Below are positions 335 to 41,965 of a stretch of DNA of 44,924 nt, one piece after another. Numbering within the stretch: the first letter of the stretch is position 1; each line of letters starts with the position of its first letter. The notes under the pieces were generated by a model. It was given only the letters and a program-made list of their open reading frames with translations, did no database searches and was not told where the DNA came from. The DNA is from a candidate division WOR-3 bacterium. GTDB taxonomy: Bacteria > Hydrothermota > Hydrothermia > LBFQ01 > DSFT01. The stretch lies in the NCBI GenBank assembly GCA_965649115.1, contig CBFGJN010000008.1:1-44924 (forward strand). Direction: 5' to 3'. The position numbers and the translations under genes are program-made.

Positions 335-1255
335 ATGATATGGTTAGTTGTAGGACAGGCTCTGAATTATCTTGGTATAATAAATAATAAATTGTTTATG
401 TACGGAGGATGGAGAAGGGATAGCACTCTTGCTCCTAATGGTAATACTGGTTCATATTCTGCAAAGGTTGAAACTCTGTTTGTAAATCAGGCATTTACAT
501 ATAATGGCCATCCTGGAAAGGGAATTTATACTGCCATTTATTATCAGGCGGGAAGTAGTATTTTTGAAGATACTGTTTATGAAGTTGGTGATACACTTAG
601 AAGACTTTATATTATAGGAAAGAATACAAGTGGAGGACCTTATAAGGTTGATATTAAAGCAGTAGTAACACCTTTTTCTATAAATAATTCCTGGCGATTG
701 GGACTTTCTGGACCTTATGTTGGTGATTTTGATGGTGATAATAGTACTCAGTATTATGATACACTTTGGTGGTTTGCTGATACTGCTAAAGTTTTATCTC
801 AGGAAAATGTTAGTGTTCCTGCAGGAACTTTTAGTGCTTATAAAATGTGGGTAAGATTAAAGGGAAGAATATGGTCATCTCTTATTAAAACCCAGGCAGG
901 AAATTTAGGATTTGACCCTTACTCTGACAGTTTATTAAGAGATTATTATATTTGGTGGGTTCCAAACTTGGGATATGTAAAAGATTCCCTATTTTCTTAC
1001 GCTCAGTGGAATGGTCCATTTAATACAAAAATTATAAGTAAGTCTTGGGAAGTTTCTGTTTTACAATCTTACACTACATCTATTGTTGAAAGGAATTCAA
1101 TTATATCAAATGAATTGATAAACTTCAAGGATAATGTAATTTTGTACGATGTTTCAGGTAAGGTTCTTTTTAAAGGTAAAGGTTTAGTGAAATTAAATAA
1201 AGGTGTTTATTTTGTAAGAAGTAGTCAGAAATTAATAAAAATTGTAGTTAAGTAG
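335..1255 (+). CDS. Exported protein with T9SS-type C-terminal sorting domain
   Basis: SD AGGGGG 7 nt upstream. C-terminus ILYDVSGKVL...KGVYFV...KLIKIVVK is typical of a type A CTD. WWVPNLGYVK beta-rich core. Confidence 0.7.
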   Translation: MIWLVVGQALNYLGIINNKLFMYGGWRRDSTLAPNGNTGSYSAKVETLFVNQAFTYNGHPGKGIYTAIYYQAGSSIFEDTVYEVGDTLRRLYIIGKNTSGGPYKVDIKAVVTPFSINNSWRLGLSGPYVGDFDGDNSTQYYDTLWWFADTAKVLSQENVSVPAGTFSAYKMWVRLKGRIWSSLIKTQAGNLGFDPYSDSLLRDYYIWWVPNLGYVKDSLFSYAQWNGPFNTKIISKSWEVSVLQSYTTSIVERNSIISNELINFKDNVILYDVSGKVLFKGKGLVKLNKGVYFVRSSQKLIKIVVK

Positions 1256-1260
1256 TTTTG

Positions 1261-1282
1261 GGAGGGTTTTAAGCCCTCCTTA
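1261..1282 (+). terminator. Probable intrinsic terminator hairpin
   Basis: GGAGGG-loop-CCCTCC just after the stop at 1255, with a poor U-tail. Confidence 0.4.
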
Positions 1283-1321
1283 AACAAGACAAAAAATTAT
1301 CCTATATAATTTTAGAACTTT

Positions 1322-1735
1322 ATGAATAAACCTATAAAGGTTCTTATAGGTAAAGTTGGTTTAGATGGTCATGATAGAGGGGCAAAAGTATTAGCAAGAG
1401 CTTTGAGGGATGCTGGGATGGAAGTTGTATATAGTGGATTACATAGAACAGCGGAAGAAATTGTTCAAATGGCAATTGATGAAGATGTTGATGTAATAGG
1501 AATATCAATACTTTCTGGCGCTCACATGACTTACTTTCCAAAAATTCTAAAACTTATGAAAGAAAACGGTCTTGAGGATGTCCTTCTAATAGGTGGAGGA
1601 ATTATTCCCGAGGAAGATGCAATAGAACTTGAAAAGATGGGTGTTAATAAAATTTTTGGGCCAGGAACACCTCTTGAAGAAATAATAAATTATATTAAAA
1701 ATTGGTATGAAAAAAAGAAGTTAGCAATTGTTTGA
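1322..1735 (+). CDS. Cobalamin-binding subunit of methylmalonyl-CoA/acyl-CoA mutase
   Basis: GLDGHDRG (DxHxxG) motif, SILSG, GGGIIP, IFGPGT. Confidence 0.92.
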
Positions 1736-2102
1736 AAAAGCTTTAAATTATATCAAATTTTCTTATGCTGTTTATTCAAATTTTAAAGTTGCGTGTATTT
1801 TGATTGCTTCAAATGGTTATGATAAAAAGGAATTTTTTGGTGTTAATATAGAAAATGCTTCTTATGGACTTACAATTTGTGCTGAAAGAGTTGCTATATT
1901 TAAAGCAATTTCAGAAGGTTATAGAGAATTATTGGAGTTATATTTAGTAGCTATAAATCAAAATGGAGAAGAAGTTTTTGATATTGTGCCTTGTGGAGCT
2001 TGTAGGCAAGTAATGAAAGAATTTTCGGATAATCTAAAAATAATTACAAGGAAGGGTGAATTTTCTATAAAAAACCTGCTTCCTTTTAGCTTTAAAATTT
2101 AA
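1728..2102 (+). CDS. cdd: Cytidine deaminase
   Basis: [23 protein letters not shown] and PCGACRQ zinc motifs. Confidence 0.93.
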
Positions 2103-2107
2103 TCCTT

Positions 2108-3016
2108 TTGAATAAACACTCGGATATTATTGAAAAACTATTTAAAGGATTAAGCTTTTTTTCAGTTGTTTTATTTATATTTATTTTTACTTCAATTTTT
2201 TTTGTTCTATTTAATGAAGCAAAACTTTCAATAAGTAAATTTTCATTTAATTTTATTTTAAAAGCAACTTGGGATCCAGTGAGAGAGGAATTCGGAGGTC
2301 TTGTGCCAATCGTAGGAACAGTTTTAACCTCAATTTTATCTGTTATTTTTGCATTTCCCATTAGTCTTGGGATTGCTATTTTTATATCTGAAATATGTCC
2401 TAAATTTTTAAAGAATTTTTTTAGGGTTAGTATTGAACTATTAGCTGGTATTCCAAGTATTATTTATGGAATATGGGGGCTTTTTGTTTTTGTTCCTATA
2501 ATGAAAAATAATGTTGAACCGTTTTTAATTAGATATCTTGGATTTATTAGAATTTTTAATGGAGAGCCATTTGGAATAGGTCTTTTAACAGCAAGTATAA
2601 TTTTATCATTTATGATTATTCCTTTTATCTCATCCATGATTATTGAATTGTTTTCCTTGGTTCCTGATGTTTTTAGAGAGTCTGCTTATGCTCTTGGTTC
2701 AACAAGATTTGAAGTTATAAGATATGTTTTAATTCCTTATGTAAAAGTTGGGATTTTTGGAAGTATAACCTTAGGATTAGCAAGAGCAATAGGTGAAACA
2801 ATGGCTGTTACATTTGTAATTGGTAATACTTATAAAATTCCGACAAATATATATGAGCCTACAATAACAATAGCATCCTCTCTTGCTAATGAATTTACAG
2901 AAGCTACTACTGAAATTTATCTTTCAAGTTTATTCTATCTTGCCTTTGTTCTTCTTCTTATATCATTTTTTGTATTTTTAATTTCAAGAATTTTGCTTTT
3001 AAAATTAATAAAATGA
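2108..3016 (+). CDS. pstC: Phosphate ABC transporter permease PstC
   Basis: WDPVREEFG, ELLAGIPSIIYG, ESAYALGSTR (EAA loop), LARAIGETMAV. TTG start. Confidence 0.92.
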   Translation: MNKHSDIIEKLFKGLSFFSVVLFIFIFTSIFFVLFNEAKLSISKFSFNFILKATWDPVREEFGGLVPIVGTVLTSILSVIFAFPISLGIAIFISEICPKFLKNFFRVSIELLAGIPSIIYGIWGLFVFVPIMKNNVEPFLIRYLGFIRIFNGEPFGIGLLTASIILSFMIIPFISSMIIELFSLVPDVFRESAYALGSTRFEVIRYVLIPYVKVGIFGSITLGLARAIGETMAVTFVIGNTYKIPTNIYEPTITIASSLANEFTEATTEIYLSSLFYLAFVLLLISFFVFLISRILLLKLIK

Positions 3017-3834
3017 AATTGAGAATAATTTTAGATAAAGTTATAACTTTAATTTCAACAGTGTTCGCATTTTTTGGAATTTTTGTATTATTTTGGATTT
3101 TGAAAGATGTTATAGTTAATGGTATCAAATCAATAAATTTGAGTTTTTTCTTGGAAGATCCAAGACCACCCGGAATTCAAGGTGGAGGATTAAGGAATGC
3201 TATTGTTGGAAGTTTTATAATTACATCTATTGCTATGATGATAGCTTTTCCTATTGGATTACTTGGTGCAACTTATATTAATGAATATTCAAGAAGTTCA
3301 AAATTTTCAAACTTTGTAAGATTCGTTTATGATGTTATGCTATCTTCTCCATCAATTGTTATAGGTGCTTATGTTTATGCTTTATTAGTAAAACCATTTA
3401 AAACATTTTCTGCTATTAGCGGTTCTTTTGCTCTTTCAATAATTATGATTCCAATTATATTGAAAACCTTAGATGAATTATTTAAATTGGTTCCAAATTT
3501 CACAAAGGAAGCTGCTTATGCACTTGGTGCTCCAAAGTGGAAAGTAATTGTTTATATAATTTGGCCTTACATTAGAATAGGAATTTTAACCTCAATTCTA
3601 TTATCATTTGCTAGAATTATCGGGGAAACTGCACCACTACTTTTTACAAGTTTTAATAATATGTTCTTTGAGGTAAATTTATTTAAGCCTATGGCTACAC
3701 TAACAGTTAATATATTTAACTTTGCAATGTCTCCTTATGAAAATTGGCATAAACTTGCTTGGTCTGCTTCATTTTTAATTGTTGTCTTTGTTTTATTTGT
3801 TAATTTAATATCAAGATTTTTGTTAAAAGAATAA
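3013..3834 (+). CDS. pstA: Phosphate ABC transporter permease PstA
   Basis: GGLRNAIVGS, PSIVIG, EAAYALGA, ARIIGETAPLL. ATGA-type overlap with pstC. Confidence 0.92.
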   Translation: MKLRIILDKVITLISTVFAFFGIFVLFWILKDVIVNGIKSINLSFFLEDPRPPGIQGGGLRNAIVGSFIITSIAMMIAFPIGLLGATYINEYSRSSKFSNFVRFVYDVMLSSPSIVIGAYVYALLVKPFKTFSAISGSFALSIIMIPIILKTLDELFKLVPNFTKEAAYALGAPKWKVIVYIIWPYIRIGILTSILLSFARIIGETAPLLFTSFNNMFFEVNLFKPMATLTVNIFNFAMSPYENWHKLAWSASFLIVVFVLFVNLISRFLLKE

Positions 3835-3896
3835 CTTTTAATTTATAAAGTTTCAGCCCCCTGCCGAAAAAAAAGGACTTTAAAATTTTCATTTCT

Positions 3897-6449
3897 ATGG
3901 AAAAAACATATAATCACAAGGAAGTTGAAGAAAAAATTTATAAATTTTGGCTTGAAAATGATTTATTTAAAGCAAACCCAAAAAATGTATTAGAAAATAA
4001 GAAAAAGCCATTTTCAATAATGATGCCACCACCAAATATAACAGGAAGAATACATATGGGTCATTTATTAAATAATACAATTCAAGACATTTTAGCAAGA
4101 TATTATAGAATGAAAAATTATGAAGTTTTATGGCAACCTGGAACAGACCATGCAGGAATAGCTACTCAAAATGTTGTTGAAAGAGAATTATTAAAAGAAG
4201 GAAAAACAAGATATGATTTAGGAAGAGAAGAATTTATAAAGAGGGTTTGGAAATGGAAAGAAGAATATGGAAGCATTATTATAAATCAGCTTAAAAGACT
4301 CGGAATAAGTGCTGATTGGTCAAGATTAAAATTTACAATGGATGAAGACTACTATAATGCAGTTATTTACGCATTTAATGAACTTTATAAAAGAGGTTTA
4401 ATTTATAAGGGACTTTACATTATTAATTGGTGTCCAAGGTGTTATACAACACTATCAAATGAAGAAGTTGAAAATAAGGAAATTGATGGAAAATTATATT
4501 ATTTAAAATATCCAATTTTAGATTCAAAAGAATATATTATCGTTGCTACAACGAGACCTGAAACTTATCTTGGAGACACGGCTGTCGCAGTTAATCCGAA
4601 AGATAGTAGATATAAACATTTGATTGGAAAGAAGGTAAAATTACCTCTTATTAATTGGAAAAGAAAGGATTATTATAATAATGAAATTTCAAGTGAAATT
4701 GAGATTATAGAAGACGAATTTGTAGATATGGAATTTGGAACAGGAGCAGTTAAAATAACTCCTGCTCATGACAAAGATGATTTTGAAGTTGGTAGAAAAT
4801 ATCATTTACCTATGGTTTTAATAATGGACTATAATGGAATTTTAAATGAAAATGCAGGTTATTTTAAAGGATTAGAAAGATTTAAAGCAAGAGAAGAAAT
4901 TGTAAAAAAGCTTTCTGAAAATGGTTATATTGAAAAGATTGAAAATTATAAATATAGTGTTGGTGTTTGTTATAGATGTGAAACAATTATTGAACCAATA
5001 ATTTCAGAGCAATGGTTTTTGAATTTAAGGTTTTTTAAAGATATTGCTAAAAAGGTTATTGAAGAAAATAGAATTGAAATTATCCCTGAATATGGAAAAA
5101 AAATTTACTTTAATTGGTGGGATAATATAAAAGATTGGGCAATTTCAAGGCAGATATGGTGGGGTCATAAAATTCCTATTGAAGGTGAAGAGGATGTTCT
5201 TGATACATGGTTTAGTTCAGCATTATGGCCTATTGCTACACTTGGTTGGCCAAATGAAACAGATGAATTAAAAGCTTTCTTTCCAACGAGTATTTTAATA
5301 ACGGGTTGGGATATTCTCTTCTTTTGGGTAGCGAGAATGATTGTTATGAGTTTGTTCTTTAAGAATGAGGTTCCATTTAAAAAAGTTTATTTACATGGAT
5401 TAGTTAGAGACGAAAAGGGAAGAAAAATGTCAAAAAGTCTTGGAAATTCACCAGAACCATTGGAATTATTTGATAAGTATTCAGTTGATGGTGTTAGAAT
5501 GGGATTGATGTTAATAACACCAGAAGGTCAAGATGTTAGATTTTCTGAAAAATATATGGAAGTTGGAAGAAATTATACAAATAAAATTTGGAATATAGGA
5601 AGATTCTTACTCTTGAATTTTGATGGAAATTATCAACCATTAAAACAACTTCAAATTGAGGACAAATGGATTTTATATCAACTTGATGATGTTATTGAAA
5701 GTGTTAATAAAGGTATTGAAAATTGTGAATTTAACAAAACTGCAAAATTACTATATGATTTTACTTGGCATAAGTTTGCAGATTGGTACATTGAAACAAT
5801 TAAAACGAGAGAAGATAAAAATTTTGCTATTTCTAATGCTCTATTTACATTTGAAAATATATTAAAACTTCATCATCCGTTTATGCCATTTATCAGTGAA
5901 GAACTTTATCAAAAGATGCCCTTTAAGAAGGAAATTTCAATAATGAAGGAAGAATTTCCAAATAAATATGGATTTGATTATAAGCAAGATTTTGAGAATT
6001 ATGAATTTTTAAAAAAGCTAATTGAAGAAACGAGAGAAATTAAGGGTATTTTTAAGATTCAAAATAGAAAGGATATTAAACTTTTCGTACATAACCAAAC
6101 AGAAGAAAAATTAAAAAATTTAGTAAAAGAAAATTTTAGGATTATTAGGTTTCTTGGGGGAATTGAAGGGATTTTTGAGACAGAAGAGAAAATAAAAAAT
6201 AGTGCAATAATAGTTTTTGATAGGTTTTTAGGATTTTTAATTTTGGAAAATTACGATTTTGAAAAAGAGAAAAAGCGACTTGAAGAAGAGTTGGAAACTA
6301 TTGAAAAATTATATAAATCAATTAAGGAAAAGTTAAATGATAGTGAATTTCTAAATAAAGCACCAAAGCAAATTATCGAAAACCAAAAAAATAAATTATT
6401 GGAACTTGAAAATAAAATAGAAAAATTGAAGATCATTTTGAATGTTTAA
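3897..6449 (+). CDS. valS: Valine--tRNA ligase
   Basis: PPPNITGRIHMGH (HIGH), GTDHAGIATQ, DWAISRQIWWGH, DTWFSS, KMSKS, C-terminal coiled coil with FLNKAP. Confidence 0.97.
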   Translation: MEKTYNHKEVEEKIYKFWLENDLFKANPKNVLENKKKPFSIMMPPPNITGRIHMGHLLNNTIQDILARYYRMKNYEVLWQPGTDHAGIATQNVVERELLKEGKTRYDLGREEFIKRVWKWKEEYGSIIINQLKRLGISADWSRLKFTMDEDYYNAVIYAFNELYKRGLIYKGLYIINWCPRCYTTLSNEEVENKEIDGKLYYLKYPILDSKEYIIVATTRPETYLGDTAVAVNPKDSRYKHLIGKKVKLPLINWKRKDYYNNEISSEIEIIEDEFVDMEFGTGAVKITPAHDKDDFEVGRKYHLPMVLIMDYNGILNENAGYFKGLERFKAREEIVKKLSENGYIEKIENYKYSVGVCYRCETIIEPIISEQWFLNLRFFKDIAKKVIEENRIEIIPEYGKKIYFNWWDNIKDWAISRQIWWGHKIPIEGEEDVLDTWFSSALWPIATLGWPNETDELKAFFPTSILITGWDILFFWVARMIVMSLFFKNEVPFKKVYLHGLVRDEKGRKMSKSLGNSPEPLELFDKYSVDGVRMGLMLITPEGQDVRFSEKYMEVGRNYTNKIWNIGRFLLLNFDGNYQPLKQLQIEDKWILYQLDDVIESVNKGIENCEFNKTAKLLYDFTWHKFADWYIETIKTREDKNFAISNALFTFENILKLHHPFMPFISEELYQKMPFKKEISIMKEEFPNKYGFDYKQDFENYEFLKKLIEETREIKGIFKIQNRKDIKLFVHNQTEEKLKNLVKENFRIIRFLGGIEGIFETEEKIKNSAIIVFDRFLGFLILENYDFEKEKKRLEEELETIEKLYKSIKEKLNDSEFLNKAPKQIIENQKNKLLELENKIEKLKIILNV

Positions 6450-6480
6450 GAATTGCCTTAATTTATGCTTTAAAATTTTA

Positions 6481-6532
6481 ATCTTACTCTCAATACTTCA
6501 ATCTAATCAATTGAAGTCCCCTGGGAGTAGAT
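6481..6532 (+). promoter_or_regulatory. Structured 5' leader hairpin of the SBBP/LVIVD operon
   Basis: ATCT/AGAT, ACTCTCA/TGGGAGT and ACTTCAAT/ATTGAAGT stems between the -10 box TAAAAT (6471-6476) and the SD AGGAGG. Confidence 0.5.
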
Positions 6533-6549
6533 AGCGAAGGAGGATGAAT

Positions 6550-8697
6550 ATGTTTATATCTCTGATCGCAAGCATTAGCTTGCCTAATTTCTTTGTTGAA
6601 AATAGGGGACAATTTGAAAATAATGTCCTCTATTATTCTTATAGCGGAATCTATATAATGAAAGATGGTTCAATCACTATAAAAAATTCAAAACTCTATA
6701 CAAAACCTAGATCCATAGTTCCTCAATACCAAGAAGGTTATATAAGCTTTCCTGATAAAAATATGAATAATCTAAGACTTTACAAAAGTATAAGACTTAA
6801 AGAAATTCAAAAGGGTATTGACCTTATTATAAATGCTCCAAGTAACGGTGAATTTGAATTTTATATTGAGATAAAACCAAATATAAAAGTTGAAAAAATC
6901 AGCCTGAAAATTGAAAATCTAAATGAATTATCATTTAAAGAATTTAAGGCATTTTCGGCAACTAATGAAATTCCAATAAAAGTTATAAAGAATAAAAATA
7001 ATTTAGCGTTTGAAATTGGAAATTATGATATAAGAAAAGGAATTATAATTGACCCTGTTGCTATGTTAATTAGTCCTCATAATGATATTGTTTTTGATGT
7101 TCAAGCAGAGAGTAATGATGTTATAGCTGTTGGCTGTACTGATGGATTAAGTGCTTTTGGTTCAACACCAAGAGATTCATTTGGTGGTGTTGGTGCTGGT
7201 TTTTATGATGTTTTTATTACAAAATTAAGTTCAAATTTATCTAATCATTTACAAACAACAATTATTGGAAGTTCAAATGCTAAAAATGAATGTGCTTATG
7301 GTGTTAAATTGGATAATAATGGTAATGTTTATGTTGTGGGAGGAACAGAAGATGGAAGTAATTTTGGAATTTCTCCAAATATCTTTGGAAATCCAGGGCA
7401 GAAAGATGTATTCTTAATAAAATTAAATAATTCATTAAATACTATTCTTTATAATGATATTTTTGCTTCACCAAATAATGATGTTGGTTATGCTATTGAT
7501 ATAAGTAATGGTAGAGTTTTCATTACGGGATATACAGCAAATTCTCCACAATTTACTAATATAACACCTAATGTTTTTGGTATTCAAGGTCTAAAAGATG
7601 TTTTTGTTATTTCAGTAGATACATTTGCCCTTTTCAATCCTTTTTTAGCTATTATATCTTCAAGTGATGATGACATTGGAAAAACAATAAAAGTTGATAG
7701 GAATGGAAATGTTTTTATTGGAGGAATGACGAAAAATTCAGTAAATTTTGCTCCAAATAGGATAAATTTTGGAACATCAGGGAATTTAGATGGATTTATA
7801 ACGAAGCTCAGCTTTGGTTTAAATAATCATTTTAATACTGCTATTTTTTCAAGTCCATTAGATGATTATATAAATACCATTGCTATTGATACAACTAATG
7901 GAAATATATTTTTTGGTGGATTAACGAAAAATTCTTCAAATTTCATCTGTTCTAATTGTCAATTAGTATATGGGACATCTGGTGGTGTTTCAGATGCTTT
8001 TATTTCAAGGATAGATAATAATTTCACACCTGGAAGTGAAAAAGTTGCTATTTTAACAAGTCAAGGACAGAATTTAGCTTCTGATAGTGAAGCAGTTAAT
8101 AGAATTATTATTCATTTCACGGGACAAATTTGGGCTGTTGGTTATACTCACCATTCGCAAACATTTACACCAAATCAAATAATAAGAGGAACTACTAATG
8201 GTTTTGGACAATTTGATGCTTTTCTGGTTCGTTTGAATAATAATTTAAACGCATTTTATCAAACATATATTTTTACTTCAAGTGATGATGATTATGCAAC
8301 TTCAATTGATGTAACAAATGGAAGTGTTGCTTATATTGGAGGATGGACAATTTATGGAAACAATTTTTATTGTAGTAATTGTCCTTCTAAATATGTTTAT
8401 GGTTCATTTATGAATGCAAATGATGGATTTGTTGTTTTTGAGGATGTTCAAGTTTCAAATAATGAAAAATTAGAAAATAATTTTAAGTTTGAAAATGGAT
8501 TTCTATATTTGAATATGAAAATTCCTAACTATGTTGGATATGAAATTTACGATTTTAATGGAAGATTAAAAACATTTAAATCAATTGGTTATTTATCAGC
8601 TGGAAGTTATAAGTTTGAAATAAATGCAAAAGGACAATCAATTATTAAAATTAGAATAGGAGATGAAGTTTATATAAAGAAGGAGGTTTTAAGATGA
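6550..8697 (+). CDS. SBBP-repeat beta-propeller surface protein with CTD-like C-terminus
   Basis: FVENRGQ and IIDP N-domain motifs, repeats of D..GNVYVVGGT...DVFLIKL, C-terminal EIYDFNGR...GSY. The second ATG (6550) is preferred because AGGAGG abuts the ATG at 6544. Confidence 0.8.
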   Translation: MFISLIASISLPNFFVENRGQFENNVLYYSYSGIYIMKDGSITIKNSKLYTKPRSIVPQYQEGYISFPDKNMNNLRLYKSIRLKEIQKGIDLIINAPSNGEFEFYIEIKPNIKVEKISLKIENLNELSFKEFKAFSATNEIPIKVIKNKNNLAFEIGNYDIRKGIIIDPVAMLISPHNDIVFDVQAESNDVIAVGCTDGLSAFGSTPRDSFGGVGAGFYDVFITKLSSNLSNHLQTTIIGSSNAKNECAYGVKLDNNGNVYVVGGTEDGSNFGISPNIFGNPGQKDVFLIKLNNSLNTILYNDIFASPNNDVGYAIDISNGRVFITGYTANSPQFTNITPNVFGIQGLKDVFVISVDTFALFNPFLAIISSSDDDIGKTIKVDRNGNVFIGGMTKNSVNFAPNRINFGTSGNLDGFITKLSFGLNNHFNTAIFSSPLDDYINTIAIDTTNGNIFFGGLTKNSSNFICSNCQLVYGTSGGVSDAFISRIDNNFTPGSEKVAILTSQGQNLASDSEAVNRIIIHFTGQIWAVGYTHHSQTFTPNQIIRGTTNGFGQFDAFLVRLNNNLNAFYQTYIFTSSDDDYATSIDVTNGSVAYIGGWTIYGNNFYCSNCPSKYVYGSFMNANDGFVVFEDVQVSNNEKLENNFKFENGFLYLNMKIPNYVGYEIYDFNGRLKTFKSIGYLSAGSYKFEINAKGQSIIKIRIGDEVYIKKEVLR

Positions 8698-10700
8698 TTT
8701 TTATATTTTTAAGTTTTGTAGATTCTTTGAATATGAACAAAGTTTTTAATTTCAATAAGTACCTTTCAGGAACAAGAAGTTTAGTTAAATTTAATAACTA
8801 TCTTTATATTTCAACTGCTTATGGACTAAAAATTGTAGATATAAGCAACTTAAATAATCCAAATCTATTAAATTACAATGAAAAATTTTACAAATCACTT
8901 ACAAATCTACAAATTTATAATAACTATTTATTTGTCGGTATTACAAATGGTTTCAGAGTATATGATATTTCAAATCCTTCTAATCCATCTATTGCTTTGG
9001 ACTATTATTATCCTTCTTCTGAAAACATTATCAAAATTTCAGGAAATTACTTGTTTGATATTTCTTATGTTGGAGGGTTTTCTATATTTGATATAACTAA
9101 TCCTTTAAATCCAATTTTAGTAGCAACAATTCCTTACTCATCAATAGGGAATGGTTATTATCTTGAAGTTTTAAACAATTATGCTTACACTTGTAGTAGT
9201 TATGGTTTTAGGATTTACGATATTTCAACACCTAATAATCCTGTTCTTATCTCTTCAATACCTATGACTTGTTTTCATATTACCTTGGATAACAATTTAG
9301 CCTACATTTTAGCCTATAATGGTCTTTATATTTATGATATTTCAAATGTTAGTAATCCAACCCAAAAAAGTTTTTTAAGTAGCTCTTATTATATAACTTC
9401 TTATAAGTTTAATAACTATCTTTATGTTATGAGTGGTAATACAGGTATAAGAATTATTGATGTATCAAATCCAAGTAGTCCAAATCAAGTTAATACCTAC
9501 TTTACAGGCGGTTCTGCACAGTCAGGATTTATTACTAATAATGTTCTATATTTGGCAGATTTTTATGGCATTAGGTTACTAGATGTTTCAAATCCTACGA
9601 ATTTATCAGAGATTTCAAGTTGGACGATTTCTGGTTATCCAAACAAAATTAAATTTTACAACAACCATATTTGGACAATAGAAGATAATAATTATCAGGT
9701 AATTGGAGGTTTAAAAATCTGGGATATATCAAACCCTAATAATCCTAATTTAATATCAAATTTTAAAAGAAAATCTGCTCTTATTTCAATGGATTTTATA
9801 AATAATTATGCTTATTTGTTTTATTCCGATTCTATTATTATCCTTGATATTTCAAATTTAAGCTCGCCAATTCAAGTTTCATCTATGGCAGCTGGGCCTG
9901 GCATTATTGTAGGAAATTATTTTTATTCGTTTTCTACTTTAAATTTGAGTGTGTTTGATATTTCAAATCCACTAAATCCTGTTTTAGAAAATAGTTTTTA
10001 TATTCCATTTTCTCCTCCTTATTCATTAACAGCTTATGGGAACTACATTTATGGAATAGCTTCTTCACCTAGTAATAGTATTTATTTGCTTGCTTTTGAT
10101 ATTTCAAATCCTGTTAGTCCATATTTGGCAGGTTTCGTTTCACTTGTTTATCCTTCAACAATTTCTTATTCAAATAATAGAGTTTATCTTTCGGAGGGAC
10201 ATTTTTTGCCTAATGGAATTTTAAGAATTTACGATGTATCAAATGTAAATAACATCCATCAAATAGGTTATTACGGCTCATCTTCAAGTGTTGTAAATAG
10301 TTATCCATTTGGTGATTATGTTCTTATATCTAATAGCTATGGTGGAGTTAAGGTTATAAATGTTAGTAATGTCAATAACCTGATTTTACTAGGATATTAC
10401 AATGATAGTTCAAATGTTTTAGATGCTTTGTTTTTAAATGGTTTTGTTTATAGCACGGAGGGAAATACTGGTTTTAGTGTTTATAAATTAAATATAACGA
10501 ATAATCCTGAAAAAGGGGAAATTATCAATTCAAGCAAAAATGCTATTGAATTTTTATCTGATGGATATTATAAAATTTATAGTGTTGATGGTAAATTGAT
10601 AAAAAGTGGTTTCTCAAAGAAAAACGAAAAACTAGTTTTGAAAAAAGGTGTTTATATTGTAAACTTAAATAAAACTATTAGGAAGGTGATTATTCAATAA
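8694..10700 (+). CDS. LVIVD-repeat beta-propeller protein with T9SS-type CTD
   Basis: About 13 repeats G(L/F)xI(Y/F/V)DISNPxNP. C-terminal KIYSVDGKLI...KKGVYIV...RKVIIQ. SD AGGAGG. Confidence 0.85.
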   Translation: MIFIFLSFVDSLNMNKVFNFNKYLSGTRSLVKFNNYLYISTAYGLKIVDISNLNNPNLLNYNEKFYKSLTNLQIYNNYLFVGITNGFRVYDISNPSNPSIALDYYYPSSENIIKISGNYLFDISYVGGFSIFDITNPLNPILVATIPYSSIGNGYYLEVLNNYAYTCSSYGFRIYDISTPNNPVLISSIPMTCFHITLDNNLAYILAYNGLYIYDISNVSNPTQKSFLSSSYYITSYKFNNYLYVMSGNTGIRIIDVSNPSSPNQVNTYFTGGSAQSGFITNNVLYLADFYGIRLLDVSNPTNLSEISSWTISGYPNKIKFYNNHIWTIEDNNYQVIGGLKIWDISNPNNPNLISNFKRKSALISMDFINNYAYLFYSDSIIILDISNLSSPIQVSSMAAGPGIIVGNYFYSFSTLNLSVFDISNPLNPVLENSFYIPFSPPYSLTAYGNYIYGIASSPSNSIYLLAFDISNPVSPYLAGFVSLVYPSTISYSNNRVYLSEGHFLPNGILRIYDVSNVNNIHQIGYYGSSSSVVNSYPFGDYVLISNSYGGVKVINVSNVNNLILLGYYNDSSNVLDALFLNGFVYSTEGNTGFSVYKLNITNNPEKGEIINSSKNAIEFLSDGYYKIYSVDGKLIKSGFSKKNEKLVLKKGVYIVNLNKTIRKVIIQ

Positions 10701-10719
10701 ATACCATTAAATTGACAAA

Positions 10720-10749
10720 TTGAAATAGAAAACTATTATGCTTTAAAAT
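10720..10749 (+). promoter_or_regulatory. Sigma70-type promoter of the tRNA operon
   Basis: TTGAAA-18-TAAAAT, ending 15 nt upstream of the tRNA. Confidence 0.55.
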
Positions 10750-10764
10750 TTCAAGCTTACAAAC

Positions 10765-10837
10765 GGGCCCGTAGCTCAAGTGGCAGAGCAGCGGACTCAT
10801 AATCCGTGGGTTGTAGGTTCGAGTCCTACCGGGCCCA
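10765..10837 (+). tRNA. tRNA with CAT anticodon, most likely tRNA-Ile2 (lysidine); CCA not encoded
   Basis: Acceptor GGGCCCG/CGGGCCC, D arm GCTC/GAGC, anticodon arm GCGGA-CTCATAA-TCCGT, T arm GTAGG-TTCGAGT-CCTAC. The paired G1-C72 and lack of three consecutive G-C anticodon-stem pairs exclude the initiator. C4-G69 and C5-G68 fit Ile2. Confidence 0.9.
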
Positions 10838-10838
10838 T

Positions 10839-11096
10839 ATGTTTTGGTTAATAAGTTCAATAATAATTAATAAAAGTGTTTCAAAAGTGGCTGATGGTTA
10901 TTATTATATGATTTTGAAGGGAACATCTGATAGGTTTTTTGTTGCTAATGTTATGAAGGGTGATATAAATGGTAACACTTGTGAAATTCCTTATATGAAT
11001 ATAAAATTAAATGTTGATGGAAAAATTATTGATTGTATTTACAAACCTACCCAAAATTTAAATGAGTTTGAAGTAGTAATTCATTATAGGAAATAA
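10839..11096 (+). CDS. Small hypothetical protein (85 aa), probably exported
   Basis: First ATG after the tRNA (the 10806 start lies inside the tRNA). It fills the gap to the next gene exactly. N-terminus MFWLISSII, two Cys. Confidence 0.6.
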   Translation: MFWLISSIIINKSVSKVADGYYYMILKGTSDRFFVANVMKGDINGNTCEIPYMNIKLNVDGKIIDCIYKPTQNLNEFEVVIHYRK

Positions 11097-11097
11097 C

Positions 11098-12198
11098 TTG
11101 ATTACTGCTGTTGAAATTGAGGCAAAGGCAAGGGAATTAAAAAGTAAGGGTTATCCTGTCATATCATTAGCTATTGGAGAACCAGATTTTCCTATTCATG
11201 AAAATATAAAAAAATCAATAAATCAAGCAATTCTTGAAAATAAAAATTACTATCCTAATCCACAAGGTGTTATTGAATTAAGAGAAGCAATAGCAGAATA
11301 TGAAACTGAAAGAAAAAAGGTTAATATAAGTCCTGATGAAATTTTGATAACAGCAGGTGGAAAGCCAGTTATATTTTATACAATTTTTTCACTTTGTAAT
11401 GAAGATGATGAAGTTATTTTATTTGAACCGTATTATTTAGTTTATCCTTATTGGTGTAAAGTTTTAAATATAAAATATCACATCATTAAATTAAATGAAG
11501 ATGGAACAATTCCAAAAGATGAATTATTAAAATGTGTAAATAATAAAACAAGACTTTTAATTATTAACTATCCCAACAATCCGCAAGGAAGTTTAATGTC
11601 AAAAGAAAACTTAGAATTATTATTAGAAGTTCTTGATAAATATCCAAGAATTTATATTTTATCTGATGAAGTTTATTCAGAACTAATTTATGAGGGTGAG
11701 CATATATCAATTTTTAGTTATAATAAAGATAGAGTTATTCTTTTGGAAAGCTTTTCAAAAACATTCTGCATGACGGGTCTTAGACTTGGTTATGGAATAT
11801 TTCCAAAGGAAATGATAAAAAATTTAATAACATTCAATTCAAATTTGATAACAGGACCAACAACACCTGTTCAGTATGGTGGAATAACAGCTCTAAAAGA
11901 TAATGAAGTTAAAAATTATGTTAATTTCATGAGAGAAGAATTTAAAAAGAGGAGGGATTTTGTTTATGAAAAACTAAAACATTTTGTTAAATTTAAACCT
12001 AAGGGTGCATTTTATTATTTTATAGAAATTCCTTACGATAGCTTGGAATTTTGTAATAAAGCATTAAATGAAAAATTTTTAGCATTAACACCTGGTTCTT
12101 TATTCGGTAATAGCTTTAAAAATTATGTTAGAATTTCATTTGCAAATTCAATAGAAAACCTAAATGAAGGTTTAAATAGGTTCTTAAGTCTTTTATGA
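11098..12198 (+). CDS. PLP-dependent aminotransferase class I/II (aspartate aminotransferase-like)
   Basis: LAIGEPDF, INYPNNPQG, SDEVY, SFSKTFCMTGLRLG (PLP lysine). Confidence 0.92.
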   Translation: MITAVEIEAKARELKSKGYPVISLAIGEPDFPIHENIKKSINQAILENKNYYPNPQGVIELREAIAEYETERKKVNISPDEILITAGGKPVIFYTIFSLCNEDDEVILFEPYYLVYPYWCKVLNIKYHIIKLNEDGTIPKDELLKCVNNKTRLLIINYPNNPQGSLMSKENLELLLEVLDKYPRIYILSDEVYSELIYEGEHISIFSYNKDRVILLESFSKTFCMTGLRLGYGIFPKEMIKNLITFNSNLITGPTTPVQYGGITALKDNEVKNYVNFMREEFKKRRDFVYEKLKHFVKFKPKGAFYYFIEIPYDSLEFCNKALNEKFLALTPGSLFGNSFKNYVRISFANSIENLNEGLNRFLSLL

Positions 12199-28106: not shown

Positions 28107-28586
28107 AACCCTAAAAAATTCAAGTATTGTAATTAAACCCATAAATAAGAAACTAAAAATTAATGTTAGGGATGTTATGTACTTCAAATAAACAAATAAT
28201 TTTGGTCCAAATGTTAAAAGCCATGGGTTTAAGATAAGCATTAGAATTGATAGAAAACTCAAAACAATAATAAAATTTTTTAGAAATTCATTTATTTGTG
28301 AAAATGAAAAGAAAATTGACAAGATAAGTGCTATCACGGGTGATATAAAGGCATGAAAATGTGATGTTTCAGACAGTTCCAAAGGTGTTTTTTGAAATCT
28401 TAACATTTCTTCATTCCCTTTATAATATGAGATTATATCACTTGGACTGAATGAACCATTAAGTTTAAAGTGGAGTATGAAGTGAGCAAAAATAAATCCA
28501 AGAATAACAAAAATATAAAAACATATAAAGGCAATTTTTATTGGAATTGGGAGTTCATTTAATTTTATCTTTAACATAGTTCTCAT
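28101..28586 (-). CDS. 4-TM membrane protein with HxH motif
   Basis: IISYYKG, LSETSHFHAF, PWL; last gene of a three-gene operon. The true start may be a few codons downstream. Confidence 0.65.
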   Translation of the reverse strand: MRTMLKIKLNELPIPIKIAFICFYIFVILGFIFAHFILHFKLNGSFSPSDIISYYKGNEEMLRFQKTPLELSETSHFHAFISPVIALILSIFFSFSQINEFLKNFIIVLSFLSILMLILNPWLLTFGPKLFVYLKYITSLTLIFSFLFMGLITILEFFRVK

Positions 28587-29043
28587 ATAAAAATAATGTT
28601 CTTTTTACAGCATAAGTTATAGAATTTACAGATATTGTAGCACCTGCTATATTTTTTATTTCTCTATTTACTCTTAGACTATCTCTTATAGTTTTATTTT
28701 CAAATTGGGATAAAAAACTTTTATTCTTTATTTCAAAACCATATGGTTCTCTATAAGCAAGGATTTCAATAAATTGAATAGAACCTTTTTTATTCAAAAC
28801 AATCATGAATGTAATTGGAAGATGTTTTCCAAGAACTTCATCAATTATAGCAACATTATCGCAACCATAATAGAATTTTAGACTATCTTTTAGTGGAGTA
28901 GGTAATTTATTTTTTTTCAGTTGATTTTTTATCTCTTTATCAATTTTCAAAGTTAAGCTATCAAATCTATTACAATTTTTAAAAGCTAATTTTAAAGCTT
29001 TTTCATTAGTTAAAAAAATTTCTGAAAATAGGAGGGGAAGCAT
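28555..29043 (-). CDS. FMN-binding (flavinylation-substrate) protein
   Basis: FLT..AL..AF, GKHLPIT, ILAYREPYG.EI...FL.QF, IAGATIS (S/T-G-A-T-like FMN attachment motif). Confidence 0.8.
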   Translation of the reverse strand: MLPLLFSEIFLTNEKALKLAFKNCNRFDSLTLKIDKEIKNQLKKNKLPTPLKDSLKFYYGCDNVAIIDEVLGKHLPITFMIVLNKKGSIQFIEILAYREPYGFEIKNKSFLSQFENKTIRDSLRVNREIKNIAGATISVNSITYAVKRTLFLYENYVKDKIK

Positions 29044-29050
29044 ATCCCCT

Positions 29051-32219: not shown

Positions 32220-32224
32220 GTTCA

Positions 32225-33523: not shown

Positions 33524-33589
33524 AAATTTTCAAAATTTTAAAGTTAATAAAAATTGCCTTATAATCTCTCCCAAAAATCAATTTTTCTG

Positions 33590-33793
33590 TGCTTTGTCCA
33601 GTAATTATTGCTAAATGCTTGATTATCAATGACTTACGAAAATTTCAATAAAACTATTGATTTCATGGGGGGATTTTAGGGGGGCGAAGCCCCCCATAGC
33701 CGAAAAATGGGCATTTTAAAGCCGAAGGCTTAAATATAGGGTGGGTGGGAAAATAAAGAAAAATAAATAATTCCAGAATTATTGGACAAGGCA
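33590..33793 (-). mobile_element. MITE-like repeat, full-length inverted copy with 9-bp flanking direct repeat
   Basis: TIRs TGCTTTGTCCAGTAATT and AATTATTGGACAAGGCA. ATTTTTCTG at both 33581-33589 and 33794-33802. Confidence 0.82.
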
Positions 33794-33820
33794 ATTTTTC
33801 TGTGCTTTATTTCTAAGAAC

Positions 33821-36576: not shown

Positions 36577-36593
36577 ATTGAAAGTTTAAAGCT

Positions 36594-36690
36594 TGATGTG
36601 TCCAAAAATTCTGAAAATATCTATTTTTCTATCTTTTGGCTTTAATGCCCATTTTTCGGCAGTGGGGGACTTTAAATCAATAATTTATAA
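36594..36690 (+). repeat. Degenerate partial copy of the MITE-like repeat
   Basis: TGATGTGTCCAAAAATTCTG end, GCCCATTTTTCGGC, AATCAATAATTTA. Confidence 0.55.
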
Positions 36691-39277: not shown

Positions 39278-39375
39278 ACCCTTCACCTCCGAAAGGTTTT
39301 TTTGAAGTTTGAAATTTTAAAGCATAATTTATTGGACGAAGCATCGCCCTCCAATAATTCCCCTTTTAAAAACTT

Positions 39376-40245
39376 CTATATAATATTCGTGCTTCCATCT
39401 AATGATATAATAATGTTATCTATAAGTCTTGTTTTACCGAAAAATACAGCTAGTGCTATTAGAACTTCTCCCTCTAACAATTCTAATGGTCTAAGTTCTT
39501 TTGTATCTACGATTTGAATATATTGAATTTTAGAAAGTGGAGCATTTTCAATTATAAATTTTTCCATTTCCGAAATAATTTTTTTAGAATTTCTTTCACC
39601 CTCTTCAATTAATTTTTTAGCAAGCATCAAAGATTTATAAAGAACGCTTGCTTGTTTCCTTTCCTTATTATTTAAATAAACATTTCTTGAAGACATTGCA
39701 AGACCATCACTTTCTCTAATTGTAGGACCTGGTACAATTTGGATATCTAAGTTTAAGTCTCTTACCATTCGTTTTATTATAAAATACTGTTGGGCATCTT
39801 TTAAGCCAAATACTGCCAGATGAGGTTTTACTATATTAAAAAGTTTTAAAACTACTGTTGCTACTCCTCTGAAATGTCCAGGTCTAAACTTGCCACATAA
39901 TTCTTGGTCTAAGTTTTTAACTTCAACGAATGTTGAGAAATTTTCAGGATACATTTCCTTTTCATCAGGAACAAATACAACATCAACATTTTCCTTCTCA
40001 CAAAGTTTTAAATCTCTTTCAAGATCTCTTGGATATTCTTTAAAATCTTCATTTGGTCCAAATTGTAATGGATTAACAAAAATTGAAACCACTAATATAT
40101 GTGATTTTTTTCTTGCTATTCTAAATAATGATAAATGTCCTTCGTGTAAATAACCCATCGTTGGAACAAATCCTATGGTTTTTCCTTCATTTCTATAACT
40201 TTCAGATAAATCCATCATTTCACCTATTTTTGTAATTACTTTCAT
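39376..40245 (-). CDS. panC: Pantoate--beta-alanine ligase
   Basis: FVPTMGYLHEGHLSL, SIFVNP.QF, RPGHF.GV, FG.KD.QQ, DGLAMSSRN, RLIDN. Confidence 0.96.
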   Translation of the reverse strand: MKVITKIGEMMDLSESYRNEGKTIGFVPTMGYLHEGHLSLFRIARKKSHILVVSIFVNPLQFGPNEDFKEYPRDLERDLKLCEKENVDVVFVPDEKEMYPENFSTFVEVKNLDQELCGKFRPGHFRGVATVVLKLFNIVKPHLAVFGLKDAQQYFIIKRMVRDLNLDIQIVPGPTIRESDGLAMSSRNVYLNNKERKQASVLYKSLMLAKKLIEEGERNSKKIISEMEKFIIENAPLSKIQYIQIVDTKELRPLELLEGEVLIALAVFFGKTRLIDNIIISLDGSTNII

Positions 40246-40274
40246 AGTTTGATAATTTTAAAGCAAATTTTTAT

Positions 40275-40445
40275 GTTGTGTTGCTTGGCTTATAAATACC
40301 CCAAAAAATCAATAATTCTAAAAATTTTTTATAACTTATTGATAATCATATTTTTCTATATTCTGCTCACCAACCCTGTTTTCGGCAGTAGGTGGCTTTG
40401 CCCCCAATAAATTAAATGTTTTCCTAAAACTTTTATAAATTTACT
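40275..40445 (+). repeat. Scrambled fragments of the MITE-like repeat
   Basis: GGCTTATAAATACCC, TTATTGATAATCA, CACCAACCCT, TTTTCGGCAG..GGTGGCTTTGCCCCC. Confidence 0.5.
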
Positions 40446-40489
40446 GCTTTTAATTCTCCCGAATTTATAAAGACTTTAAAATTTCATTC

Positions 40490-41965
40490 TTGCTAACTCT
40501 AATTTTAATTTTTCAAACAGAGGATTTACCACAATTTTTTATTCAGCAATATGCCTCACATCCAATTGATATAAATAATGCCACTCTTGAAGAATTAAAA
40601 CAGATTCCATTTTTAAGTTCTGATGATATTGAAAAAATTTTAAAATATAGACCATTTAAAGGTTATGCTGAATTTAGAAGAACATTAAATTTAAGTTATA
40701 GAGAATTCCTTTTAATTAGACCTTATATAATAATACTTCCAAAAAGTTTTAATGGTTATTTTAGTGCTTATGGTGGTGCTCAAATTCTTTCAAATGTAGA
40801 TAGAAACTTAAATAATAATACAATTTTAGATAGCATTTTAAATAAAGTTTCTGATTATGGTCTTGATGTTCAACTTTACTATAAGCATTATGCTTTTAGA
40901 TTAAAAGATTATAATTTAACTGATACCATCTTCCTAAGTAATGATACAATAATAAATTATGAAAATCGTTTAAGGTTTGTATTTAATGCTTTTTTAAGTG
41001 ATATGGCTTTTAGAATTGGGAATTTTGCTCCAAGAGTAGGTTATGGTGCAATAAGTTATAGACCAAGGTACTATTTTTTATACTTGCCAAGTTTCAACTT
41101 CCCTTCATCAAATTTATCAATTGAATATAGATATAAATTTTTAGGTGTTTTTATTGATACAACGAAAAATTTCTTTATTTATTCTAATTATAAGGACTTT
41201 TATTTTGGGTTTATAAAGGGTTATTATGAAAGCTTTTGGTCATTTTTAATTTTAAATCCATTTCCAAAATTTTCATTTTCAATTGAAGGTTCCTATGGTA
41301 GAGATGGTTATAGTTATGGATATTCTTTAATTTATAGAGATAGGGGTGTTTTTGTTTTTTATAATCAAAACTTTTATAGAGGTTCTCAGCTTTGGAGATA
41401 TACTTATTGGTCTGATAGTTCATTTTTATATGTTTATTTATCGTTTTTTCCATTTGATTTAAGAATGAATATGAGAGGTGATAGAGGTTCTATAAATATC
41501 TCATATGAATTATCAAATTATTCTTATGTTATATTAAGGCATTATAGACATCCATTCTTTAATAGTTATCAGATTTCTTTTAATCAAACAAGGGGAATAT
41601 TTTTATCAGGTGAAAAAGTTAAAAATGGAGCAATTTTAACAGTTGGTTATAACTTACAGCTTGGAAGAAGATATGAAGACCCTTACATAAAGTTTAGAGT
41701 TTATTACTTTAATACTTGTATGACAAATAACAATTGTTTTGTTAATGATAGTAACTTGTATTATCAACCTTATGACCCCGATATCCGCTTGAATTTATAT
41801 TATTGGAGTTCATATGAAGGATTTTTTCCTTACATTGATTCAAGAATTCAGCTTTATGGGAGTGGTACAAAATTATCAATTTCTTTAAGATATAAAAAAT
41901 TTTATTTTAGATTTGTTGATGGTGGAAGGTACGACCTTGGACTGGAAAAAAATTTCTTTTTTTAA
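40490..41965 (+). CDS. Helix-hairpin-helix (ComEA-like) domain fused to a probable outer-membrane beta-barrel
   Basis: PIDINNATLEELKQIPFLS...ILKYRPF, followed by Tyr/Phe-rich beta strands and a terminal F. TTG start. Confidence 0.7.
   Translation: MLTLILIFQTEDLPQFFIQQYASHPIDINNATLEELKQIPFLSSDDIEKILKYRPFKGYAEFRRTLNLSYREFLLIRPYIIILPKSFNGYFSAYGGAQILSNVDRNLNNNTILDSILNKVSDYGLDVQLYYKHYAFRLKDYNLTDTIFLSNDTIINYENRLRFVFNAFLSDMAFRIGNFAPRVGYGAISYRPRYYFLYLPSFNFPSSNLSIEYRYKFLGVFIDTTKNFFIYSNYKDFYFGFIKGYYESFWSFLILNPFPKFSFSIEGSYGRDGYSYGYSLIYRDRGVFVFYNQNFYRGSQLWRYTYWSDSSFLYVYLSFFPFDLRMNMRGDRGSINISYELSNYSYVILRHYRHPFFNSYQISFNQTRGIFLSGEKVKNGAILTVGYNLQLGRRYEDPYIKFRVYYFNTCMTNNNCFVNDSNLYYQPYDPDIRLNLYYWSSYEGFFPYIDSRIQLYGSGTKLSISLRYKKFYFRFVDGGRYDLGLEKNFFF

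Follow-up and report, generated by a model that had tools for sequence, protein, structure and literature searches.

How short can an N-terminal export signal become and still carry a protein out of the cytoplasm? The question is raised by a contig of 44,924 nucleotides from a candidate division WOR-3 bacterium (Hydrothermota; GenBank assembly GCA_965649115.1, contig CBFGJN010000008.1), in which six genes open with a few hydrophobic residues directly ahead of what appears to be the mature protein. We refer to this whole stretch as the window. It is contig C8 of a genome bin of 99 contigs and 1.85 Mb, with 27% guanine plus cytosine (GC) and a rated completeness of 94.5%, and similar DNA is present in hot-spring metagenome runs from several studies. 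Classical signals of the Sec pathway that are cleaved by signal peptidase I (SPase I) consist of n-, h- and c-regions and are typically about 18-30 residues long, with an h-region of about 7-15 hydrophobic residues and a total length that is usually at least 15. Textbook signals need a charged n-region and a core long enough for the SecY lateral gate and signal peptidase. An earlier note, made from the sequence of the window, proposed that the six proteins carry uncharged signals of 7-9 residues and that the lineage may use a second, minimal export signal that is targeted or processed by a separate route. The analysis reported here suggests that these mini-leaders are probably working Sec/SPase I signals, reduced to a Met followed by 5-8 strongly hydrophobic residues.

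All six start codons were read directly in the sequence, and none of the six proteins has Lys or Arg within its first 9 residues. The leaders and two elements adjoining them are as follows.

335..355, + strand: mini-signal of gene 1, MIWLVVG, 7 codons, predicted mature start Q8 (gene 335-1255; ATG 335).
6550..6588, + strand: short uncharged leader of gene 2, MFISLIASISLPN, about 13 codons, before FFVENRGQ (gene 6550-8697; DUF7948 and SBBP propeller, Pfam).
8694..8720, + strand: mini-signal of gene 3, MIFIFLSFV, 9 codons (gene 8694-10700; LVIVD propeller, Pfam, and a type A tail of T9SS, the type IX secretion system).
10765..10837, + strand: tRNA-Met (ARAGORN), 3' end abutting the start codon of gene 4.
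10839..10868, + strand: uncharged hydrophobic N-terminus of gene 4, MFWLISSIII, about 10 residues, a putative signal only (open reading frame 10839-11096, 85 aa).
29023..29043, - strand: mini-leader of gene 5, MLPLLFS, 7 codons (FMN_bind protein 28555-29043, PF04205).
40475..40484, + strand: -10-like box TTTAAAATTT, its TAAAAT hexamer ending 7 nt ahead of the start of gene 6, a leaderless-type arrangement.
40490..40513, + strand: mini-signal of gene 6, (M)LTLILIF, 8 codons with a TTG start, then Q (gene 40490-41965; HHH_3 domain, Pfam).

The leaders of genes 1-6 thus measure 7, ~13, 9, ~10, 7 and 8 residues. The range of 7-9 given earlier holds for most of them and fails for gene 2, whose leader has about 13 residues rather than 8. 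A Pfam scan of the window proteins found no family for genes 1 and 4.

For most starts of this kind in the genome, an in-frame stop stands 0-5 codons upstream, with a Shine-Dalgarno (SD) sequence or a -10-like box at the proper spacing. ATG 335 of gene 1 follows the SD AAGGGGG at 321-327 and has TAA one codon upstream (329-331). Gene 2 has the SD GAAGGAGG at 6536-6543, 6 nt ahead of ATG 6550, and an in-frame TAG at 6532-6534; ATG 6544 was rejected as its start because it would have no spacer to the SD, and the N-terminus is uncharged with either start. ATG 8694 of gene 3 overlaps the stop codon of the preceding gene (ATGA), with the SD AAGGAGG at 8680-8686, 7 nt ahead, and an in-frame TGA at 8664-8666. 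Gene 4 starts at ATG 10839, one base past the end of tRNA-Met at 10837, and its reading frame is kept in the genus (4 of 4 genomes), each time directly behind the tRNA (MLWLLSS, MLWLISMM, MFWLINMM, MVWLVGML). ATG 29043 of gene 5, on the minus strand, lies 7 nt past the TAG of the upstream gene, and TTG 40490 of gene 6 has an in-frame TAA at 40451-40453.

Could the short leaders be an artefact of miscalled starts or assembly indels, the true signals lying longer upstream? The source is a 99-contig metagenome bin, and the TTG of gene 6 has an in-frame upstream ATT that would give a Lys-containing n-region, both of which speak for such an error. This ATT, however, sits within the conserved -10-like box, and orthologs of gene 6 have ATG at the TTG position (MFFLILISQTEDL, MLLILLITQTEDL, MLLLLVISQSEDL and, in a second genus, MLLLYIISQ), each 5-7 nt after a TAAAAT(TT) box; the ATT start was therefore rejected. 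Over 6404-6637, 6526-7643, 8598-8842 and 10816-11200, contigs of two DNA runs that come from two studies match the window exactly and have no indel at a start; one of these runs is possibly the source sample. The same short starts recur across the family and order, in ~20 independent assemblies. Against the close upstream stops and the SD or -10-like boxes at the called starts as well, the artefact reading is largely refuted and is scarcely credible to us. The earlier view that the six starts are not miscalled stands, since an SD, a -10-like box, the end of a tRNA or a close upstream stop fixes each of them and relatives conserve them; it also passed the indel test that the note had named, with independent contigs identical around three starts and relatives keeping the short forms. 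Contigs from an RNA library (X5) cover parts of genes 2-4; as contigs, they show neither transcript ends nor a DNA-free library. In addition, contigs of two DNA runs join 10757 to 8694 through 40 other letters, which suggests a related strain or paralog with a different promoter region before a start like that of gene 3.

When N-termini are aligned with those of homologs, the short segment occupies the place of classical signals of 17-23 residues. In the following, g1 denotes the genus of the window and g2 a second genus; f1, f2 and so on are families, f2 being the sister family. In an alignment of 17 members of the gene 1 family, M1 and Q8 are the sole invariant positions of the region (17/17), and the residue at -1 is always Gly, Ala or Ser. 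The leader ahead of this Gln has 7 residues in the genus, 9-12 uncharged residues in f5 and f6, and 16-19 residues with Lys or Arg in f2. Orthologs in f2 read MKKVLLVFGFASPLFAQ-PFTYLGI or MRYVLAALLMGASVGYLNAQ-ALNYLGI and end A/Q or G/Q (a slash marks the presumed junction), next to MIWLVVGQ-ALNYLGI in the genus. The AlphaFold model of gene 1 has a mean predicted local distance difference test (pLDDT) score of 81.7, with residues 1-7 below 50 and a confident fold from about residue 9. In the model of gene 5, residues 1-3 have pLDDT <50, and the first helix spans residues 13-21. The closest ortholog of gene 1 (G002:C6:8151-9068, 90% identity) has one in-frame TGA that cuts its frame to ~207 residues, possibly a strain-level pseudogene or a sequencing error.

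The other families tell the same story. The ortholog of gene 2 in g2 has a 23-residue, Arg-containing signal, MRLSVPVSLFIPVFLSATVLPSG, before FIENRGQ, from which the length of ~13 rather than 8 residues was taken for the leader in the window, and a paralog in G002 has a Lys-containing signal. A same-genus ortholog of gene 3 (G002) has MRFLLFFVAMMGIGYCA ahead of the shared DSLN. Orthologs of gene 5 are short (MLPFLISE, MILLIISK and MLFFLLAQ, and MILLSSTW and MILFITYT in f2), and both gene 5 and gene 6 keep short leaders throughout f1 and f2. Within the genome of the window, one paralog has the classical signal of MLRLLITITLFISIGYAQ/TSKIVWMNYSATGC and another reads MIFLIISQ/INKIIWFQYSSTGC; in all, three paralogs carry MIFLIISQ, MLFLIISS or MILILLTQ ahead of the same motif as the classical-signal paralog. 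The same protein family thus alternates between classical and mini-leaders, between families and even inside a genus. The conserved junction, the invariant Gln at +1 with a small residue at -1 and the free switching of form argue that long and short forms do the same job and would be cut at the same bond. Since homologs carry classical signals at exactly this place with the junction kept, the short leaders are best read as shrunken Sec/SPase I signals.

The pattern is not confined to the window. Gene calls were crude and made with a script of our own, giving 1555 genes when the first ATG was taken and 1604 when starts were chosen with regard to SD and box. A gene was placed in the short class if at least 5 of residues 2-7 were hydrophobic, none was Lys, Arg, Asp or Glu, and the protein had no membrane-span-like 15-residue window. 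This class holds 133 of 1555 or 135 of 1604 genes, about 8%, with the consensus M-[IL]-[FIL]-[LIF]-[LI]-[LIF]-[LSN]-Q, and the first polar or charged residue stands at position 7-10 in 103 of the 133. The bare rule (Met followed by at least 5/6 hydrophobic residues without Lys, Arg, Asp or Glu) is satisfied by 163 of 1604 N-termini (10.2%) versus 121 of 5592 internal Met positions (2.2%). Gln occupies position 8 in 29 of 133 short-class genes, compared with 25 of 1272 other genes and a Gln background of 2.1%, and it is found at positions 8-10 in 47 of 135 members. In the Q8 subset, the residue at -1 is Ser, Gly, Ala, Thr or Cys in 18 of 30 and that at -3 is Leu or Ile in 26 of 30. The recurrence across this genome and related ones that was expected earlier is therefore found: the tabulated N-termini form a class of more than 100 genes.

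The functions of the class members point to the envelope. Pfam was run on 73 of the 135 short-class proteins, those within 20 fetched regions, at a family threshold of E<=1e-4. A family was found for 42 of the 73, and ~28 are envelope or secreted proteins, a status judged from general knowledge of the families and not by a tool. The annotated proteins include BamA (Omp85 and POTRA domains; MLIILLSE/IVGKVEVSG), OmpH/Skp (MLFIIISQ), three subtilases, a TonB-dependent receptor, a thioredoxin of the DsbA-like kind, a member of the OmpA family and an M1 peptidase with a T9SS tail, as well as SppA, GSDH, YceI, PPIC rotamase, Amidase_2, NfeD and cytochrome c. SurA-like proteins also belong to the short class. 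BamA, Skp and SurA-like proteins are indispensable to a diderm cell. Alignments, Pfam and the AlphaFold model of gene 1 place the leader at the N-terminus, directly ahead of an extracytoplasmic mature domain.

Other signal types are distinct from the short class. K/R-containing classical N-termini occur in about 107-110 genes, many of them lipoproteins or membrane proteins, and the four window genes that the earlier note listed with normal signals (15604, 16988, 17203, 29839) are as described there. A lipobox with Cys at 12-18 was seen in 30 of 107 classical-class genes, mostly with Lys or Arg retained. Cys, which the lipobox of signal peptidase II requires, is absent from all six window leaders, and so is Arg, two of which mark a Tat signal. 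By definition the short class lacks the charged n-region of Sec signals (no Lys, Arg, Asp or Glu in residues 2-7), and its h-region and total length fall below theirs. Uncharged lipobox signals number ~5 in the genome, for example MIIFFILILISC and MPILIIVLLILGC; lipobox signals are short here as well.

The trait extends well beyond one genome and is graded in length. Leaders of SurA-like orthologs in 30 relatives are as follows.

Genus g1: MIFLILSSDS; 7 residues, uncharged.
Genus g2: MLALFIINQ; 8 residues, uncharged.
Family f2: M-phi6-Q-LDTLDR; 7-8 residues, uncharged, stop 1-2 codons upstream.
Family f5: MSWLMMLFAQ; 9 residues, uncharged.
Family f3: MIKILILFFSQ; 10-11 residues, one Lys or Arg.
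Families f4 and f6-f9: 17-22 residues with Lys or Arg, ending ...AQ or ...GQQ.

Samples of two relatives agree with this series. In 400 kb of an f2 genome with 41% GC (G009), 32 of 368 genes fall in the short class versus 14 with classical signals; among reciprocal-best orthologs of short-class genes, 10 of 15 stay short, as do most of the others when judged by eye. The 400-kb sample of an f4 genome (G020) has 17 genes that pass the rule with leaders that are really of 10-14 residues and 32 classical genes, and partners of short-class genes carry signals of 18-20 residues. No counterpart of BamA, Skp and others was found within these two 400-kb samples, and a related-locus search of genome contigs gave only distant matches resembling peptidyl-prolyl isomerases. 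Because the trait runs across family and order, at 27-41% GC and in identical independent contigs, both assembly error and base-composition bias can be excluded as its source. The same breadth bears on erosion, in which the signals would be decaying, export failing and the cargo genes heading for loss. The in-frame TGA in one close ortholog of gene 1 would fit such decay; set against it are more than 100 genes per genome with one tight consensus, essential BamA, Skp and SurA-like proteins among them, and conservation of the class, in reading frames that are long and intact, at the level of genus, family and order. Erosion is barely plausible on this evidence.

How, then, might such a leader work? 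As shrunken Sec/SPase I signals, the mini-leaders would have lost the basic n-region and most of the h-region and retained the last three positions (aliphatic at -3, small at -1) and the +1 residue, often Gln. A hydrophobic tip with a (formyl-)Met end in place of the n-region would suffice to start translocation through SecA and SecYEG, and the single signal peptidase LepB may then cut ahead of Gln or another polar residue, since a 7-residue leader could fit wholly in the substrate groove. A leader without a charge to hold it on the cytoplasmic side might enter head-first. The T9SS cargo would then cross the outer membrane by means of its C-terminal domain. Sec dependence, cleavage and engagement of the channel by so short a segment are what we infer from sequence comparison.

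The mini-leaders resemble classical Sec/SPase I signals in their place at the N-terminus, their hydrophobic core, a -1 residue that is often small, a -3 residue that is mostly aliphatic or small, their extracytoplasmic cargo and the junction they share with orthologs. Unlike them, they lack an n-region with Lys or Arg, have only 5-8 hydrophobic residues and total 7-10 residues (13 in gene 2). The absence of an AxA site noted earlier is correct for the strict motif, yet the residue at -1 is often still small and that at -3 mostly aliphatic, as in VVG/Q. Gln at +1 of SPase I substrates has been described as the Q-rule of Bacteroidetes, variable elsewhere in the Fibrobacteres-Chlorobi-Bacteroidetes group (PMC5837995, the part available), where in Bacteroidota the Gln is cyclised to pyroglutamate (PMC5837995 and PMC10653852, likewise in part). 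As the earlier note suspected, the mini-leaders recall this rule: they are followed by Gln in a large share of cases, classical signals of the same genome also end ...A/Q, and in the gene 1 family Gln is invariant at +1 (17/17) behind leaders of 7 or 19 residues. The Q-rule was described for signals of normal length, whereas here Gln stands behind 7-residue leaders.

T9SS cargo has been described, in the part of PMC12618676 available, as consisting of a Sec signal, functional domains and a C-terminal sorting domain. Such tails are present here, together with a SprA/Sov homolog (SprA_N, PF14349) in 13 of 13 genomes, including that of the window (a 1697-aa frame on C32); the search for T9SS components was confined to this protein. 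Por_Secre_tail matches at 30 places in the genome, and the N-terminus falls in the short class for 16 of the 27 callable cases by rule and 22 of 30 by eye. Read from the upstream stop, their mini-leaders are, for example, MILFLFSN, MFYLLTFIPE, MLLILIIQIFYEDFEN and MIILLIGQIQNPDFEN; two of the remaining tail proteins have classical signals, and others lie at contig edges or are unclear. In the window, the tail of gene 3 passes TIGR04183 with 25.1 bits at a cut-off of 23, while genes 1 and 2 stay below it at 18.3 and 16.7 bits, with this model as the top match. The earlier assignment to T9SS cargo therefore stands for gene 3 and falls short of the cut-off for genes 1 and 2. PF18962 gave no match at E<=0.01 in the window proteins. 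The last ~50 residues of gene 1 match the ends of many reading frames in relatives and form a beta-sandwich in the AlphaFold model. Unlike known T9SS cargo, most of the cargo here has a mini-leader instead of a normal Sec signal, and the short class is wider than T9SS cargo.

LepB is encoded once per genome with a match (29 of 31 searched), with intact Ser and Lys boxes and an anchor alike in all families. SecY is present in 31 of 31 genomes, singly in 30 and with two matches in G017, and SecA and TatC are present in the genome of the window. A deletion of 6-8 residues at the LepB C-terminus was considered as a marker of the trait and dismissed, as g1 and f2 have it and g2 lacks it. In SecY sequences of 29 genomes, 11 columns separate f1 and f2 from families with classical signals; at most of these columns the group with short signals has the residue of E. 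coli. One of them aligns with E. coli I187, which we take to be a pore-ring position: this residue (184 in G000:C64) is Ser in g1, Ala in g2, f2 and f3, and Ile in the other families. E. coli strains with prl suppressor mutations in SecY or SecE export proteins with defective or missing signals, and a translocon that accepts sub-standard signals would likewise explain the short class, the I187 equivalent being Ser or Ala in f1-f3. Unlike in prl strains, a single SecY site discriminates here, and no change at a known prl position was seen. The inspection of SecA, SecY, SRP (the signal recognition particle) and LepB for lineage-specific changes, proposed earlier, thus yielded none in LepB and one site in SecY; the SRP components, discussed below, were not found.

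Several observations count against shrunken Sec/SPase I signals. At 7 residues, a leader falls well short of the usual signal and, as a helix, cannot cross a bilayer. In the Q8 subset, the -1 residue is bulky (Leu, Ile or Asn) in 12 of 30. The comparison of LepB across 23 genomes found no lineage-specific change, and the SecY change, as the sole discriminating site, is a weak lead, because Ala also occurs in f3 and in Aquifex (3dl8), and f5, which has short leaders, has Ile. Plant-type glutaminyl cyclase (PF05096) was not found in the 94.5% complete genome of the window, a search that did not extend to the animal (M28-like) type. Finally, ~8 of the 42 Pfam-annotated members belong to cytoplasmic families (CutA1, CinA, GT2, ADH, PTPS, ABC, bactofilin and amidohydrolase). 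These eight are false positives of the rule or have wrong starts, and the rule is for this reason not clean.

Such members lead to the question of whether the hydrophobic N-termini are first beta-strands of mature folds, or a by-product of AU-rich 5' coding in leaderless mRNAs, the proteins being cytoplasmic or exported in some other way. Some rule-positive proteins are indeed cytoplasmic folds that open with a hydrophobic strand (CutA1 and, by eye, Cas2-like and Pth-like N-termini), the genome has 27% GC, and in ~27% of its genes a -10-like box precedes the start by 6-9 nt. Of 1602 called starts, 439 have such a hexamer (TAAAAT, TATAAT or TAAACT, often in cTTTAAAATTT) ending 6-9 nt ahead of them, most often at 7 nt, an indication that about one gene in four is leaderless or almost so. 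A leaderless-type promoter is, however, no mark of the short class, where the box is no more frequent (52 of 135) than among all genes (587 of 1604). In alignments the segment pairs with classical signals rather than with the mature domain; the predicted fold does not include it, and relatives with 41% GC retain it. For BamA, Skp, SurA-like and DsbA-like proteins and TonB-dependent receptors, export is a necessity, and they have no signal besides this one. We therefore consider an origin in folds or base composition very unlikely for the class.

A more serious question concerns targeting, as components of SRP were not found. The M domain of Ffh (PF02978) was matched in 0 of 31 genomes of the taxonomic class and in 14 of 14 control genomes, and the SRP54-type GTPase domain common to Ffh and FtsY gave only P-loop-level matches (<=28.5 bits) in the same 31. 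The GTPase domain was searched in 36 different genomes of the taxonomic class overall, several of them rated 100% complete. In a sample of 81 genomes of the phylum, strong GTPase matches were seen in 55, with two at 207-255 bits in 50, and in none of the 15 genomes of the taxonomic class or the 11 genomes of five other families. SRP RNA (RF00169) was detected in 49 of the 81, in exactly those families that have both proteins, with one miss, and in 0 of the 15. A tblastn search with Ffh and FtsY of four SRP-positive members of the phylum found nothing in the genome of the window, whose file contains only 20 N, although the neighbours def, fmt and rpe matched. The SRP-positive controls include the following loci.

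L249:6830-8110: Ffh.
L245:1498-2367: FtsY.

Ffh, FtsY and SRP RNA were thus not found in the searched genomes of the taxonomic class, and three independent components appear to have vanished together. The five further families of the phylum likewise yielded none of them, whereas all three are present in other classes of the phylum. In families f17, f21 and f25 (e.g., G037:C1:475494-476060), a single SRP54-type GTPase match of ~140-158 bits lies in frames of 350-466 aa and SRP RNA was not detected; these families may represent an intermediate or a different state of the pathway.

This pattern leaves room for the view that mini-leaders use a different mode of entry or a dedicated factor in a rewired, SRP-free targeting system, cleaved or not, for example by head-first threading without a hairpin. 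The three SRP components are found in much of the phylum sample and not in the taxonomic class, and the lack of charge would suit an N-terminus that need not be retained in the cytoplasm. Set against this are the absence of any candidate targeting factor among the proteins found, with one SecY and one LepB per genome, and the invariant Gln and small -1 residue, which point to ordinary SPase I processing. Moreover, f4, f8, f23 and f26 lack SRP and keep classical SurA signals, while f19 is SRP-positive and has the short, uncharged MILFLFFAF/DG. In the SurA sample, SRP loss is therefore neither necessary nor sufficient for short signals and was rejected as their cause; being wider than the mini-signal lineages, it defines no dedicated route. 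Compensation by YidC fares no better: the protein is single-copy and lacks a basic ribosome-binding tail (6 residues in the genome of the window), and its C-terminal tails of 3-39 residues form no pattern. On balance, a different entry mode or dedicated factor seems rather unlikely. The proposal that export was re-engineered in this SRP-less taxonomic class of free-living hot-spring bacteria, so that a 7-residue uncharged tag suffices to carry soluble and outer-membrane proteins across the inner membrane, enters without a hairpin (head-first or with another factor) and is cleaved before the invariant Gln, is one we entertain only tentatively. Of the earlier idea of a second signal, a class of minimal, uncharged signals does exist, whereas a route of its own is not supported, given the single LepB and SecY, the switching of leader types and the shared cleavage junction. 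SecB was not found in the genome of the window either, which at 94.5% completeness is no proof of absence.

Life without Ffh and FtsY is known to be possible from laboratory cases. Streptococcus mutans reportedly has a second YidC with a ribosome-binding tail. This organism survives SRP loss (PMC8546722), E. coli suppressors grow independently of SRP (bioRxiv 10.1101/2021.01.06.425660), and mRNA targeting has been described in SRP-independent growth (bioRxiv 10.1101/2022.11.21.517368), each according to the part of the source available. The condition in the present lineage appears to be natural and class-wide; the laboratory cases concern mutants, or a Gram-positive species that has a second YidC, unlike the one YidC without such a tail found here. 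In the open-access literature searched, we found no description of unusually short or minimal signals or of natural SRP loss.

If shrunken Sec/SPase I signals are indeed at work, about 8% of a proteome, including BamA, Skp and SurA-like proteins, would be exported with uncharged leaders a third of normal length, and the minimal needs for Sec recognition and SPase I cleavage would be lower than assumed. Predictors trained on classical signals would then probably miss part of the secretome in this lineage and its relatives, and very short secretion tags would become a design option. Were export instead re-engineered, the lower limit for a secretion signal would have to be set anew, and the lineage would provide a natural SRP-free model organism. 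In either case, the apparent class-wide absence of SRP, FtsY and SRP RNA touches the long-held assumption that the pathway is universal in free-living cells.

Two further observations concern the DNA around these starts. Genes that begin 1-2 nt past an apparent tRNA 3' end, as gene 4 does, were also seen by eye at G000:C79 near 3132 (-), C2:17369 (+) and C73:360 (+); by analogy with the "tRNA punctuation" of mitochondria, tRNA processing would create a leaderless mRNA at such sites. In addition, the regions upstream of genes 1 and 6 (window positions 1-330 and 40260-40440) share, by eye, repeat-like stretches (ggcttataaatacc... and tataa(g/c)ttattgat(t/a)atca).

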